The position numbers and the translations under genes were made by a program. Below the pieces are notes generated by a model. That model had not been told where the DNA came from, made no database searches, and saw nothing but the letters and a program-made list of their open reading frames with translations. A stretch of 64,000 nt of DNA from Patescibacteria group bacterium (GTDB lineage Bacteria; Patescibacteriota; Minisyncoccia; UBA6257; GWB1-50-10), in contig JAMCYI010000016.1 in the NCBI GenBank assembly GCA_023474215.1, forward strand, positions 8,265-72,264. The letters run 5' to 3'. Positions 30,016-38,862 of the stretch are shown here, in pieces. Each line of letters begins with the position of its first letter. Positions within the stretch are counted from its first letter, which is position 1.

Positions 30016-30088
30016 CGCCCCCCGCTCTCCTTCAAAAATTGTAGGCCCCCCGCTCTCCTTGAATTTTTGAGGGAGACCGGGGGACCCT
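30016..30088. repeat. REP-like G-rich palindromic repeat (family 1), 1.5 units
   Basis: gccccccgctctccttcaaaaatt + ggccccccgctctccttgaatttttgagggagaccgggggacc; related units at 35351-35392 and 38601-38670. Confidence 0.75.
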
Positions 30089-30118
30089 TAAATCTGGGGA
30101 TAACCCAAATAAAGATTG

Positions 30119-33100
30119 CTACCGCACCGTCATTGTTCCCACCTCTCCCCTTGCAGTATGTCCGGGAACATCACAATGAAAAGTATAATCGCCGGTACTG
30201 GAAGGAGCACTAAATGTAATAACTCTTGTCATCATGGGACCAACGCCACTCGGACTGAGTTGGATCGATGGATCATCAAACTTGAAGACATGGGTCTCAT
30301 CATCGGCACCAGTAAGAGAAACCGACATCGCCGATCCGCTTTTCACTGTGAATGTCGATGGTAAGAACCCAGCGGAACTGACTTCGAGCTGAATTCCGGA
30401 AGAAGAAAAACCGCCAGGGAATTCCCACGTCGTCGAAGCCACATCCGACATCAGGCCCATATCATCAACGGCCCGTATTCCTATCTTGTATTCATTTGGA
30501 AAAGAAACTGGATATGATAAAGATGTATTCGATCCGGCTTGCACCCACTCGGATTCATGAAAATCAGAAAGGTTTGTAATGTTATATTCGTAGATTATCT
30601 TCGAATCTAAGGAATCGAGATCGGTCGAGGTGGACCAGGAAATATTCAACGCCATGCTGCTTTCATTAAAGTTGATTGATTGAATTTGAGGGGTAGTCGG
30701 CCTTTGAGGAACGGAAACATCAACCTGCAACCCTGGTTCACCTTCCATAACCATAAATGGATAAAAAGAATAGTAGTTGAAAACTTCACCGGTATCGAGA
30801 ATGAAAGAGTTGCTCATGGCAGTACCGGTCGCCGTCGTGCCCGCGAGGATCACACTCCTGTTTTGATAATCTTGATAGGTATCTAAACGGTAATAGGAAA
30901 AAGGATGAAGTTCCACCTCGAGATCTTTGAGGACCACATTGTGCACCACGTTTGTGAAAGGTGCATTATCGGAAAGCGTAAACACAGCAACTTCATGCGT
31001 GTAATCTTCGTCCTCAAATTCTCGAAGGTAGACATGTGACGAAGAAAATTCCGGCCGATCAACCAACCCACGCAAGAAAAGCGTGCGGAGAATGCCGGAA
31101 AAACCTCTTCCTAATTTGTACCAATTGTCCGAATAATGACTGCCAGCAGAAAACGACGGAAATGAGTTTTGAGAAAAGACAACCGAACTCGAGGGAATTG
31201 GAAGCGATGCGTCGATGCTCATATCGGTCGTGGCGGACGGCATGCCATCCCGATCAAAAGCCGACATCGAAAAATGATACGTTTCCCCAATCCTCGAGAG
31301 CGGATAAGCGGCCGAGACGGTCGTCGTTGCAATAAACAATGAGGAACTGCCATTATTTTCTTCGAAAATCTTATACACTATCCCTGAGGGTGAAGCTGTA
31401 GAATCGCGGGACGGCGACCACGCAAATCCAATAGTCATGCCATTGAAATCATATTTTGCAATCGCATCTTCCCCCAATATCGGCACGGGAGCAGTTGGTG
31501 ATGAACGCGGTTCCGGCAAACTCTGCGAATTCTGCGGTTTAGCGGCGGGCCATATCTCAAAATCGGCGACGCTTTCCCCCGTTTCACAATTTTTTCCAAG
31601 AAATTCCCCCTCCGCGCCTGGAAGCCCCGAAAAACAGTACTCATCGCGAAATGCCTTGCGCCCTAAACTCCCGGAAGGTTCCGGAACCGCTGCTGGATGA
31701 AAATCCGCGAAAATACTCCCGTTGCCATAGAAGAGACTACTCTCAATTGATCCATCGTTCAACGAACTTACATCAGCCGTCGTAGAAACCAGAAGAACTA
31801 CTCCACCATTTGAACCGCCGGATAGACTGAATGATCGGTAAAAATAGTCGGGTGTGGTTGTACCAACATATCCATCGTCTCCACCGTCATTTTTTCCACG
31901 GGCAATGAGAAAAAATTCCTTCGATTTGATTGAATCCTCCACCCCGAATGTTTCTTTTGAGGTAGTTGAGCTCGAAACAGCTTCCGCGCTGCCACTCAGG
32001 TATTGCAAAGACCATCCAGATAGATTTACATCACGATCACCGGAATTATAAAGTTCAATAAACTCATCGCCTGCGTCGACGCCGCCAACTTGCACTTCGC
32101 TTATCACAACGCGATCCGTACTGCTCCCAACGACCGGCGGTGTGGATGTCGGCGTTGTCGTCGCCTCATCGGCGATAAGCGATTGATCAAGAATGTTTTC
32201 GCTACCCGGCGTGGGACGCGACCAAGTCCATGTATCGCCGATAAATTGCAGAGAATTTCCGTCGCCTTGAGCGCCGGTCGACGACGAGTAAGTGGTGGTT
32301 GCAAGCGTGTCGTTGCTGTACTTGAGCACCAGTTCCCCACCGCTGTTGCCGAGGGAAAACGAAGCCGAGAACAAAGTACCGCTGAAGTCGGGAAAATCAT
32401 TGAAGAATGTTGAGGAACCATTTGCGATAACGGCATATCCACCAGCCGCAAGTGTTTCACTGCCCGCTTCCAGTATCAAGCCGTGGTTTGTTCCCCCTTC
32501 GCGGAACTTGAGAACACCGAGATCGACGGACGTGGTGCCCCTGTTCAAGATTTCCACCCATTCATGCCCCTCATCGGCTCCCACCGGATTGTACATGATC
32601 TCGCTGATAATCAAATCTGGCGGCGAGGAGGTGGATGAGTCACTGTTATTGTTCGAATTGTTCTGGCTACTGCCACCTCCGCCGATATATATCACTTGGT
32701 TTTGATTCTGCGGCGGGATGTACGGGGGGCCATTCGGCGCTCTGGGCGTCCCGAAAACTTTTCCATTGAAACTTCCGGACGTGTACCACGAGAGGTCGTC
32801 TTTTCGCTCCATACTCCTCCGGAGCGATGCATCGCCTGCCGGCCACTCGGAATCTGCAACGACGCGGTCGACAAGTTTACAGTTTGCATCGAAAAGAGCC
32901 AAGCCATCATCGGTATTAGAAAGCCCGCCGGTATAGATCATATCCGCCGCAACGTTCGGCACAGAGTTGTCGTCGGTCCGTTCAAGTAATAAGAAACTCC
33001 ACGACGGTATCGTCACTCCAGGCGGGAAAGCCACTTTGACGCTTCCCTTCTTGCTTAAAATCTGCCAGTCGGAAAGATCAACAGTCACACCCGTTACATT

Positions 33101-38542: not shown

Positions 38543-38600
38543 AGAAATATTTTAAACCGAATGAAACCAAGAGATAGCTCTAATTATCCACAGATTTAAA

Positions 38601-38670
38601 GGCCCCCCGGTCTCCTTCAAAAATTAGAGGAGAGCGGGGGGCCTTCATTTTTTGAAGGAGAGCGGGGGGC
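38601..38670. repeat. REP-like G-rich palindromic repeat (family 1), 1.5 units, followed by a G-rich tract to about 38770
   Basis: ggccccccggtctccttcaaaaattagaggagagcggggggcc + ttcattttttgaaggagagcggggggc. Confidence 0.75.
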
Positions 38671-38862
38671 GGGATGGAGAGCGGGAATGGGAAGACGGAG
38701 CGGGAGGAAGCTGGATGAGGGCGAGAGGGGGCGGGATGCCGGAAGTGCGGAAATGGAGGGGGTTGGCGGGGATTTTGACAAAAATAATGAAGAGTGGTAT
38801 AATACCAGCATAGTAGAATTGAGAGTTTTTTAGAAAGTGAATATAAGAAAGGACTGATTGAT

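Follow-up and report, generated by a model that had tools for sequence, protein, structure and literature searches.

Dispersed hairpin repeats beside a Y1 transposase-like gene: a probable, atypical REP/RAYT-type system in a Patescibacteria-type genome

In a stretch of 64,000 nucleotides from a Patescibacteria group bacterium (assembly GCA_023474215.1, contig JAMCYI010000016.1, positions 8,265 to 72,264; in the following called the window) a family of short G-rich palindromic repeats, family 1, occupies three intergenic sites, one of them directly upstream of the gene of a Y1 HUH transposase-like protein, which we call RAYT1. Repetitive extragenic palindromes (REPs) and the REP-associated tyrosine transposases (RAYTs) are the best example of a domesticated transposase that maintains a population of short repeats, and most descriptions of them come from Proteobacteria, Cyanobacteria and Bacteroidetes. 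We conclude that the repeats and RAYT1 probably constitute a REP/RAYT-type system in a Patescibacteria-type genome, although an atypical one, and not an insertion sequence of the IS200 type. This conclusion is built on the repeat family itself, the predicted stability of its hairpins, the catalytic motifs and the fold of the protein, the synteny of the locus and the co-variation of the repeat arms with lineage.

The arms of the family-1 repeat follow the pattern CCCCCCGSTCTCCYT. With up to two mismatches allowed this pattern is found eight times in the window (at 30018, 30046, 35352 and 38603 on the plus strand and at 30070, 35376, 38627 and 38655 on the minus strand), compared with 0.47 matches expected by chance, and none of 100 shuffled windows reached this number. 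The eight arms are confined to the three sites 30018-30084, 35352-35390 and 38603-38669, all within 8.6 kb of the RAYT1 gene. Pairs of arms are predicted to fold into a stem of about 15 bp with a loop of about 10 nt. The calculated folding energies are -20.7 kcal/mol for element A (30010-30103), -16.1 kcal/mol for element B (35345-35398) and -26.6 kcal/mol for element C (38584-38677), corresponding to z-scores of -3.4, -4.7 and -7.0 relative to shuffled sequence.

All three elements are intergenic. Element A (30010-30103, plus strand) is composed of an extra arm (30018-30032), the hairpin (30045-30086), an 8-nt spacer and a short conserved sequence, the tag, which here reads TGGGGATAA (30095-30103); it is located between the stop codon of a giant gene and the start of a SpoU methylase gene. 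Element B (35334-35409, plus strand) starts with a degenerate inverted tag TTGTCCCCA (35334-35342), followed by the hairpin (35351-35392), a spacer and the tag CGTGGATAA (35401-35409), and lies in the divergent intergenic region between the gene of a 178-aa protein and PolX. Element C (38584-38677, minus strand) has the inverse orientation of element A, with the tag TTATCCACA at 38584-38592, the hairpin at 38602-38643 and an extra arm at 38655-38669. Its tag precedes the RAYT1 start codon by 41 nt (50 nt when counted to the far end of the tag) and the repeat begins 59 nt upstream of the ATG. Elements A and C are thus inverted repeats, 8.5 kb apart and 90% complementary over 94 nt, each with a third arm. 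A previous reading of the sequence only had described hairpin-forming palindromes at three sites, with one and a half units at 30016 and 38601, a G-rich tract beside the latter copy and a transposase open reading frame (ORF) at 37784-38542 with the repeat just upstream. All this was confirmed, the half units being the extra arms of A and C. The limits it had given for the repeats (30016-30088, 35351-35392 and 38601-38670) locate the sites correctly; the elements themselves extend slightly further, to the tags.

Element A is adjoined by a C-rich tract (29860-30016, without strand), which in the flank alignment mirrors the G-rich tract (38670-38775, without strand, 59 G of 106 nt) found between element C and the promoter of the next gene. 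In the orthologous flank of the related genome WY2 (locus L008) there is just about 35 nt of G-rich sequence before the homology to the window resumes. We considered whether the tracts are arrays of decayed arms, and rejected this since arm-like matches in them are not above those in composition-matched shuffles. Likewise, a scan for intrinsic terminators and promoters flagged none of the repeat hairpins; a small terminator-like hairpin (29971-29955, minus strand) lies inside the C-rich tract and the only strong promoter, a perfect sigma-70-like sequence at 38775-38803, is outside the repeat and serves the next gene. The repeats do not belong to a known RNA family either, as the Rfam matches in the window are confined to rRNA and tRNA.

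The tag, TCTG(T/G)GGATAA, is present 7-8 nt past the foot of the hairpin at every element in the window and had escaped the sequence-only reading. When the hairpins of the window and of related genomes were listed (28 hairpins, 26 of them distinct after removal of the duplicates of window A and B at locus L085), 23 of the 28 had the tag at this fixed offset from the stem. Some hairpins are tagged on both sides, so that the palindrome is extended to about 80 nt. Where an extra arm is present, it is on the side opposite to the tag, except at loci L026 and L042, where, as judged by eye, it lies between the hairpin and a tag-like sequence. The sequence TGKGGATAA occurs five times in the window (0.86 expected), and three of the five occurrences adjoin palindromes, namely at A, at C and at RAYT2, a second transposase-like gene. 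In the form TTATCCACA the tag equals the DnaA-box consensus, which has been quoted as TT[AT]TNCACA (Quentin et al. 2018, PMC6006769); roughly one tag in two reads TGGGGATAA. We also considered the central mismatch of the stem as a mark of orientation. This was rejected: the mismatch, which is present in 17 of the 26 distinct copies, goes back to the existence of GCTCTCC and GGTCTCC as alternative arm alleles, and both orientations of the core relative to the tag are found.

To survey other genomes a degenerate pattern of 22 positions matching all eight arms was used in an exact scan of 185,579 species-representative genomes. The scan matched 81 DNA stretches, and multiple matches occurred only in three related metagenome-assembled genomes (MAGs), WY2.bin70, FK3.bin131 and one submitted as 'Candidatus Saccharibacteria'. 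A re-scan of these loci gave at least 16, at least 11 and at least 5 sites, respectively, all lower bounds as they come from an exact-pattern scan; two of the FK3 sites are on a contig 99.7% identical to the window. About 55 single matches were scattered over unrelated taxa, where chance would give about 70 by hand arithmetic from the information content of the pattern. Of the 28 listed hairpins, 24 lie outside ORFs of at least 120 aa, and several family-1 copies are close to gene starts. There is also a second subfamily, which has lost the inside of the hairpin by deletion and retains an arm, GGCCCCCCGGGGGGCC and the tag. Some short contigs stop at or near the repeat, as is expected of a repeated sequence, which suggests that the site counts are lower bounds for this reason, too. 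Family 1 appears to be a genuine dispersed, extragenic and lineage-restricted repeat family. A phage origin of the repeats was considered and rejected: a viral collection gave three single family-1 matches, one of which (L186) was inspected and has no hairpin, and the viral contigs showed no repeated family. As to the genomes compared, FK3.bin131 (JAJYWR01) contains two versions of one locus, 99.7% (L085) and about 80-87% (L036/L018) identical to the window, so that this bin appears to mix two related populations.

The identical RAYT1 protein is encoded on eight contigs from different samples, in one and the same context wherever neighbours are visible; the species itself is represented in several metagenomes. 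Orthologs with 96% (L008), 90% (L036), 75% (L089), 66% (L091) and 59% (L093) identity all keep the gene order RAYT, convergent LTD gene, PolX and giant LTD gene, with a small gene of 174-207 aa just before the giant gene; at L093 PolX is followed by three to four additional genes. On the 5′ side the neighbours vary by lineage, and it is at the repeat that synteny breaks off. In each of the six lineages examined a repeat is found directly 5′ of the RAYT1 ortholog, with the tag 27-52 nt from the ATG (read by eye from the flanks), and none at the 3′ side. The position of element C is thus kept in all five orthologous loci, and each genome examined has a single RAYT1 ortholog with one repeat copy directly 5′ of it, in agreement with the proximity of repeat and transposase that had been proposed from the sequence. 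The same reading had pointed out that two copies flank the giant gene. Their positions are as described, and nothing indicates that they matter: the gene order is conserved and neither inversion nor mobilisation was seen. For the same reason we discarded the idea that the 8.5-kb segment between A and C is an invertible or composite element, since it is colinear in all related loci.

The tag and the arms behave differently in this comparison. The tag is constant, whereas the arm module differs between genomes and is uniform within each. At L089 both sites carry an arm with the mini-palindrome CCCCCCGGGGG; at L091 both sites carry arms without a hairpin; and at L093 the derived arm GCCTCCCGACATCGCACG is present at both sites with the tag after it, which is TGTGGATAA at one site and the degenerate TGGGGGATA at the other. 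Arms that are uniform within a genome and different between genomes at orthologous sites require copying or conversion; conservation of a binding site is not sufficient. Similarly, A and C are 90% alike, whereas the FK3 ortholog of element A lacks the extra arm, which points to homogenisation between copies. RAYT1 itself, by its sequence context, appears to behave as a domesticated, vertically inherited gene at a fixed locus.

The RAYT1 gene (37784-38542, minus strand) codes for a Y1 HUH protein of 252 aa, as determined with Pfam, NCBIfam, a family alignment, an AlphaFold2 (AF2) model and Foldseek. The Pfam family Y1_Tnp is matched with 31.6 bits, above the cutoff, and RAYT2 is above the cutoff as well. 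The sole NCBIfam match of RAYT1 is REP_Tyr_transpos (NF047646). This model is matched by all 34 aligned family members (best E-value 1.1e-11), whereas the IS200 model NF033573 is matched by one of the 34 (E-value 0.006). In the alignment H92 and H94 of the motif NHFH and Y152 and P157 of the motif YYIHxNP are invariant and N156 is nearly so; the tyrosine motif reads YIHTNP in RAYT1 and YIHLNP in RAYT2. Also conserved are LFQGRF and a tail motif YRWSS..DY.G..NFPSVTQREFLL. The AF2 model (pLDDT 80.6) has its best Foldseek match in 4er8_A, the Escherichia coli TnpAREP with REP hairpin (E-value 3.2e-6, TM-score 0.69 on the target), and the TnpA structures of IS608, ISDra2 and IS200 (including 2a6m and 2xm3) rank after it. 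When the protein sequences of the PDB were searched, RAYT1 alone had no match and its profile had a weak one to the ISDra2 TnpA around the HUH motif. The assignment to the RAYTs rather than to IS200 TnpA, made earlier from the sequence, is upheld by the YIHxNP motif, the structural match to 4er8, the two NCBIfam counts and the fixed locus. At its 3′ end the RAYT1 gene overlaps the convergent LTD gene by 25 nt and no right-end hairpin is present; among the called neighbours of RAYT1 and RAYT2 there is no tnpB-like gene.

Given the similarity of the tag to a DnaA box we considered whether it might be read by a DnaA-like helix-turn-helix (HTH) in the C-terminus of the RAYT; profile, alignment and structure searches gave no support. 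Pfam had no match at an E-value of 1 or below for the C-terminal 96 aa of RAYT1, hhalign against domain IV of E. coli DnaA (with an approximate query sequence) returned a probability of 0.3%, the C-terminal profile found nothing relevant among the PDB sequences, and a model of the isolated C-terminus (pLDDT 65) had no Foldseek match. According to the full-length model, in which it has high confidence, the C-terminus would pack on the catalytic core and not form a separate domain. The RAYT1 clade (homologs P0003, P0005-P0008, P0014 and P0028) is set apart from the rest of the family by some 20 hydrophobic residues that form a tail at the C-terminus (EEVVVFFFMITFGSQLLLSVD, 37784-37850, minus strand).

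Within the RAYT1 gene the segment coding for a variable loop contains an imperfect hairpin, CCCGGATTTCAATGGTTGATTTCCGGG (38350-38376, minus strand; -11.3 kcal/mol, z-score -2.7), at a position where homologs contain their respective palindrome in frame. The hairpin bears no relation to the G-rich arms of family 1; it may be what is left of an earlier cognate repeat.

RAYT2 (58039-58809, plus strand) encodes a paralog of 256 aa that is 50% identical to RAYT1. It is associated with a palindrome of its own, CTTACGAAGTTGGACTTCGTAAG (family 2), which is present 5′ of the ATG (57999-58036, plus strand, preceded by the tag TTATCCCCA at 57999-58007), in frame inside the ORF (58211-58239, plus strand, encoding KSYEVGLRKI in the variable loop) and across the stop codon (58785-58820, plus strand, followed by the tag-like ATTGGGGAT). 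The family-2 palindrome had no match in the viral collection. In the contigs with visible neighbours (seven contigs read) RAYT2 has the same context; the neighbours of the two RAYT genes comprise an LTD gene, PolX, 23S_rRNA_IVP genes and the gene of a giant surface protein. Some short contigs from other samples end about 5-15 nt from the RAYT2 stop codon, at the 3′ palindrome. AT-rich repeats of the AATTTACAATTTTCAATTT type surround RAYT2 and the 23S_rRNA_IVP genes. Convergent with RAYT2 is a giant gene (58825-62283; Pfam Phage_phiTE_241_C), which has been called with 967 or 1142 aa in other samples (L180-L182), the longest ORF in the window being 1152 aa; it may code for a variable surface or tail-fibre-like protein.

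In a scan of JGI metagenomes we collected 80 homolog loci (L095-L174), 67 of them with complete flanks. A strong palindrome is present upstream of the gene at 59 of the 67 loci, with a matching copy downstream at 41 and a matching in-frame copy inside the gene at 44, around aa 57-69 or aa 150-160; TATCGAGGTTCAACCTCGATA, for example, encodes the peptide YRGSTSI. The sequences of the palindromes vary from locus to locus, always staying palindromic. One homolog locus (L163) has a layout like that of family 1, with TTATCCCCAGAAT, a palindrome and ATTCTGGGGATAA around an unrelated core. The homologs are 225-257 aa long and those named by their source are labelled Patescibacteria. One of them, P0023, was found in 24 contigs, and the five places shown represent a single genomic context; with a single context for P0023 as for RAYT2, the family behaves like RAYTs and not like insertion sequences. 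The tag is only 2-3-fold enriched near the homologs (8 of 78 upstream flanks) and thus did not prove to be a general trait of the wider family. In the literature we consulted we found no description of cognate in-frame or flanking palindromes in the protein family of RAYT1 and RAYT2.

A number of observations weigh against a REP/RAYT-type system. The NCBIfam scores of RAYT1 (37.1 bits) and RAYT2 (33.8 bits) for REP_Tyr_transpos are far below the cutoff of 80, and the lead of 4er8 over the IS608 TnpA in Foldseek is about tenfold in E-value and no more. RAYT1 has a repeat on the 5′ side only, and no DNA locus compared contained the family-2 palindrome elsewhere than at RAYT2. The GT[AG]G sequence is missing from the foot of the hairpin, which instead consists of GG or CG followed by CCCCCC; GTAG precedes the arm in some of the copies with one and a half units only, others having GCAG or ACAG. 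Relative to the tag the core of the hairpin can point either way, and this does not fit easily with a cut-and-paste model of strict strand specificity. In WY2, FK3, CAZMFA and the window most sites are orthologous, with matched flanks about 74-90% identical, so that family 1 is old and positionally stable. Among the related loci compared we saw no clear polymorphism of filled versus empty sites, and present mobility is therefore unproven. Finally, the copy number is modest, with tens of sites at most, while classical REPs typically have hundreds of copies. The REP/RAYT relationship first suggested from the sequence is supported, but in a form that is not canonical as regards the missing GT[AG]G, the tens of copies and the mostly conserved sites.

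The positional stability raises the question whether the repeats are host cis-elements kept by selection, for instance sites of a protein binding to the tag, with the RAYT-like gene carrying one such site and copying none. The mostly orthologous sites in WY2, FK3, CAZMFA and the window would be in line with this, as would the presence of several copies near gene starts, the persistence of the tag across deep divergence while all else changes, and its fit to the DnaA box TT[AT]TNCACA (PMC6006769). On the other hand, the roughly half of the tags that read TGGGGATAA deviate from the DnaA-box consensus at a specified position. The GC skew in the window is near zero, weakly positive at about 36-44 kb, and shows no clear sustained change of sign; thus there is no obvious replication origin in the window. 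Selection on binding sites does not account for arms that are uniform within and different between genomes, a pattern requiring copying or conversion, nor for the variants with an extra arm or an internal deletion, and the association of a Y1 transposase homolog with its own palindrome recurs at at least 59 independent loci. We therefore regard host cis-elements as an unlikely explanation, although the most serious of the alternatives.

Considerably less probable still is an ordinary, autonomously mobile element of the IS200/IS605 type, the palindromes of which would be the left and right ends and the dispersed copies solo ends or derivatives resembling miniature inverted-repeat transposable elements. 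Y1_Tnp is the Pfam family of IS200-like transposases, the genes of RAYT2 and most homologs are flanked by hairpins on both sides, and the profile has its weak likeness to the ISDra2 TnpA around the HUH motif. However, the motifs are YIHxNP and NHFH, not Y[IV]ENQ and DH[VI]H, and a single family member of 34 touches the IS200 model, with an E-value of 0.006. RAYT1 stays at one fixed syntenic locus over 59-96% identity and P0023 in one context at the five places shown; the two paralogs of the window are 50% identical and not near-identical copies; RAYT1 runs into a host gene at its 3′ end and has no right-end hairpin there; and no tnpB-like gene is among the called neighbours. Where palindromes do flank a gene on both sides they are the same near-perfect palindrome and not distinct imperfect left and right ends.

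That G-rich simple sequence merely looks palindromic by chance can practically be dismissed: the adjoining G-rich tract indeed has no arm structure beyond its composition, but eight arms were found instead of 0.47, the folds have z-scores from -3.4 to -7.0, the same element with its tag at fixed offset recurs at more than 30 sites in three other genomes, and the viral collection gave just three single matches, the inspected one (L186) without a hairpin.

Taking RAYT1 and its repeats as a REP/RAYT-type system, one of the closest known counterparts is the E. coli REP/BIME system with its TnpAREP (subclass 2.2, 4er8). Both have the Y1 HUH fold, 4er8 being the best structural match, and the Y---NP motif; in both the gene is at a fixed locus in the available data and stands beside its cognate extragenic hairpin repeat, and both repeats have a short conserved tag besides the hairpin. 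RAYT1 differs in being about 90 aa longer, with the conserved YRWSS...NFPSVTQREFLL tail, and in its HUH motif (NHFH instead of DHLH). The tag TG(T/G)GGATAA of family 1 is 7-8 nt away from the foot, which has no GT[AG]G, there are tens of copies and not hundreds, and the protein is below the NCBIfam equivalog cutoff. With the REPIN/RAYT systems of Pseudomonas (Bertels and Rainey; groups 2 and 3) family 1 shares the inverted pair of short repeats that gives a long hairpin, a repeat family of its own for each RAYT paralog, and vertical inheritance with conserved synteny. Unlike in these REPINs, a single family-1 arm is not itself palindromic, the number of repeats is far lower, and the sites are largely conserved between species, recent transposition not being visible.

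In the classification of Quentin et al. (2018, PMC6006769, Table 1) class 2 comprises the TnpAREP-like proteins with Y---NP, and IS200 (subclass 1.1) has DH[VI]H and Y[IV]ENQ. Subclass 2.1 is characterized by NH[YF]H, FQ, Y[IV]HLNP, an SS tail, a length of about 238 aa and about two copies per genome at about 49% identity; it corresponds to group 1 of Bertels and for the most part to the TIRYTs of Di Nocera (2013). It has been reported with a C-terminal HTH (Bac_DnaA_C, HTH_23 or HTH_28) and without REP-like hairpins, and the TIRYTs are flanked by terminal inverted repeats with a GGGGWSAS motif. When compared by eye with this table (PMC6006769, Table 1), RAYT1 and RAYT2 resemble the TIRYT/TIRtron subclass 2.1 in NHFH, LFQGRF, YIH(T/L)NP, YRWSS and their lengths of 252 and 256 aa, and the window has two paralogs at 50% identity. 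The flanks, too, share a G-rich motif with the TIRtrons, although the tag GGGGATAA matches GGGGWSAS at just 6 of 8 positions, and the repeat families are moderately abundant in both. In contrast to subclass 2.1, a strong palindrome flanks almost every member here, and a C-terminal Bac_DnaA_C or other HTH is not detectable in RAYT1 with Pfam, hhalign or Foldseek. The only reported cases of REPs inserted in frame into the transposase gene come from subclass 2.4 (Cyanobacteria and Bacteroidetes), at a different position; the in-frame cognate palindromes of RAYT2 and of 44 of the 67 homolog loci are reminiscent of these, but the motifs are FQ and WSS here and WQ there, and the double GT[AG]G foot is absent here. 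From the IS200/IS605 TnpA proteins (IS608, ISDra2), with which it has the catalytic fold and, as expected chemistry, the recognition of hairpins on single-stranded DNA in common, RAYT1 differs in the tyrosine and HUH motifs, in its single fixed locus and in having no distinct left and right ends.

A mechanism can be proposed on the model of TnpAREP and the IS608 TnpA, from which binding of the hairpin repeat, the site of cleavage and present-day mobility are inferred. The cognate repeat would be modular, consisting of two inverted G/C-rich arms of 13-15 nt, an 8-nt spacer and the tag TG(T/G)GGATAA. On single-stranded DNA, such as that of the replication fork, the inverted arms would pair into a hairpin, and RAYT1 would bind this folded hairpin and cut at or near the tag via Tyr152, with His92 and His94 holding a metal ion. 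Rejoining of the strands could then lead to the module of arm, loop and arm being copied, replaced, duplicated or deleted at tagged sites. Copying of the arm module at tags by RAYT1 would make the arms uniform within and different between genomes, would let the tags and their positions persist, would give rise to variants with one and a half units or with internal deletions, and would explain that one copy is always at the 5′ end of the gene.

The window has further repeats and a number of features apart from the two RAYT genes. Inverted repeats of 130 nt (15019-15148 and 17588-17717, 95% complementary) flank three housekeeping-type genes, which by eye from their translations are release-factor-like, methyltransferase-like and fructose-bisphosphate aldolase-like. 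The region 47334-52687 contains repeats of about 1 kb, with four copies at 49214, 50223, 51292 and 52388; the copies at 49214 and 52388 are 95% identical over 300 nt and the pair 47334/48308 is 99% identical, and the region looks like an array of paralogous genes. Other short repeats, among them those of the AAATCCTAAAT type, are present in 18996-19123, 22357-22492, 55536-57876 and 60300-63566, and a palindrome TGCTCTTTATATAAAGAGCGG has four copies in the window. About 9.8 kb, with tRNA-Thr, tRNA-Trp and apparent protein-coding sequence, separate the 16S rRNA gene (10810-12277, minus strand) from the 23S rRNA gene, of which the 5′ part (1-980, minus strand) is in the window; the rRNA genes are thus unlinked.

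Full-text searching of the literature gave, among the matches listed, no description of RAYTs or REPs for Patescibacteria or the Candidate Phyla Radiation. We tentatively propose, as a possibility that we hold with clearly less confidence than the REP/RAYT assignment itself, that RAYT1 and RAYT2 belong to an as yet undescribed subclass of RAYT-like, domesticated Y1 transposases that extends across the Patescibacteria and whose genes have their own co-evolving palindromes 5′, 3′ and in frame at two hot spots. In one lineage this arrangement might have given rise to a dispersed modular REP with the invariant DnaA-box-like tag TGTGGATAA and fast-evolving arms that are replaced in concert at fixed tagged sites. 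If this were true, the tag would be the anchor or target and the arms the mobile part.

What the present analysis adds is the architecture of tag plus arm and the family-wide intragenic palindromes. The RAYT1 family possesses the set of motifs of a subclass that has been reported without REPs. The split between a constant tag and variable arms leads to a testable model of which part is recognised and which part is copied, and the in-frame palindromes in the transposase genes could serve as a natural marker for the coupling of enzyme and repeat. The logic of REPs and RAYTs would thereby extend to the small genomes of the Patescibacteria type.

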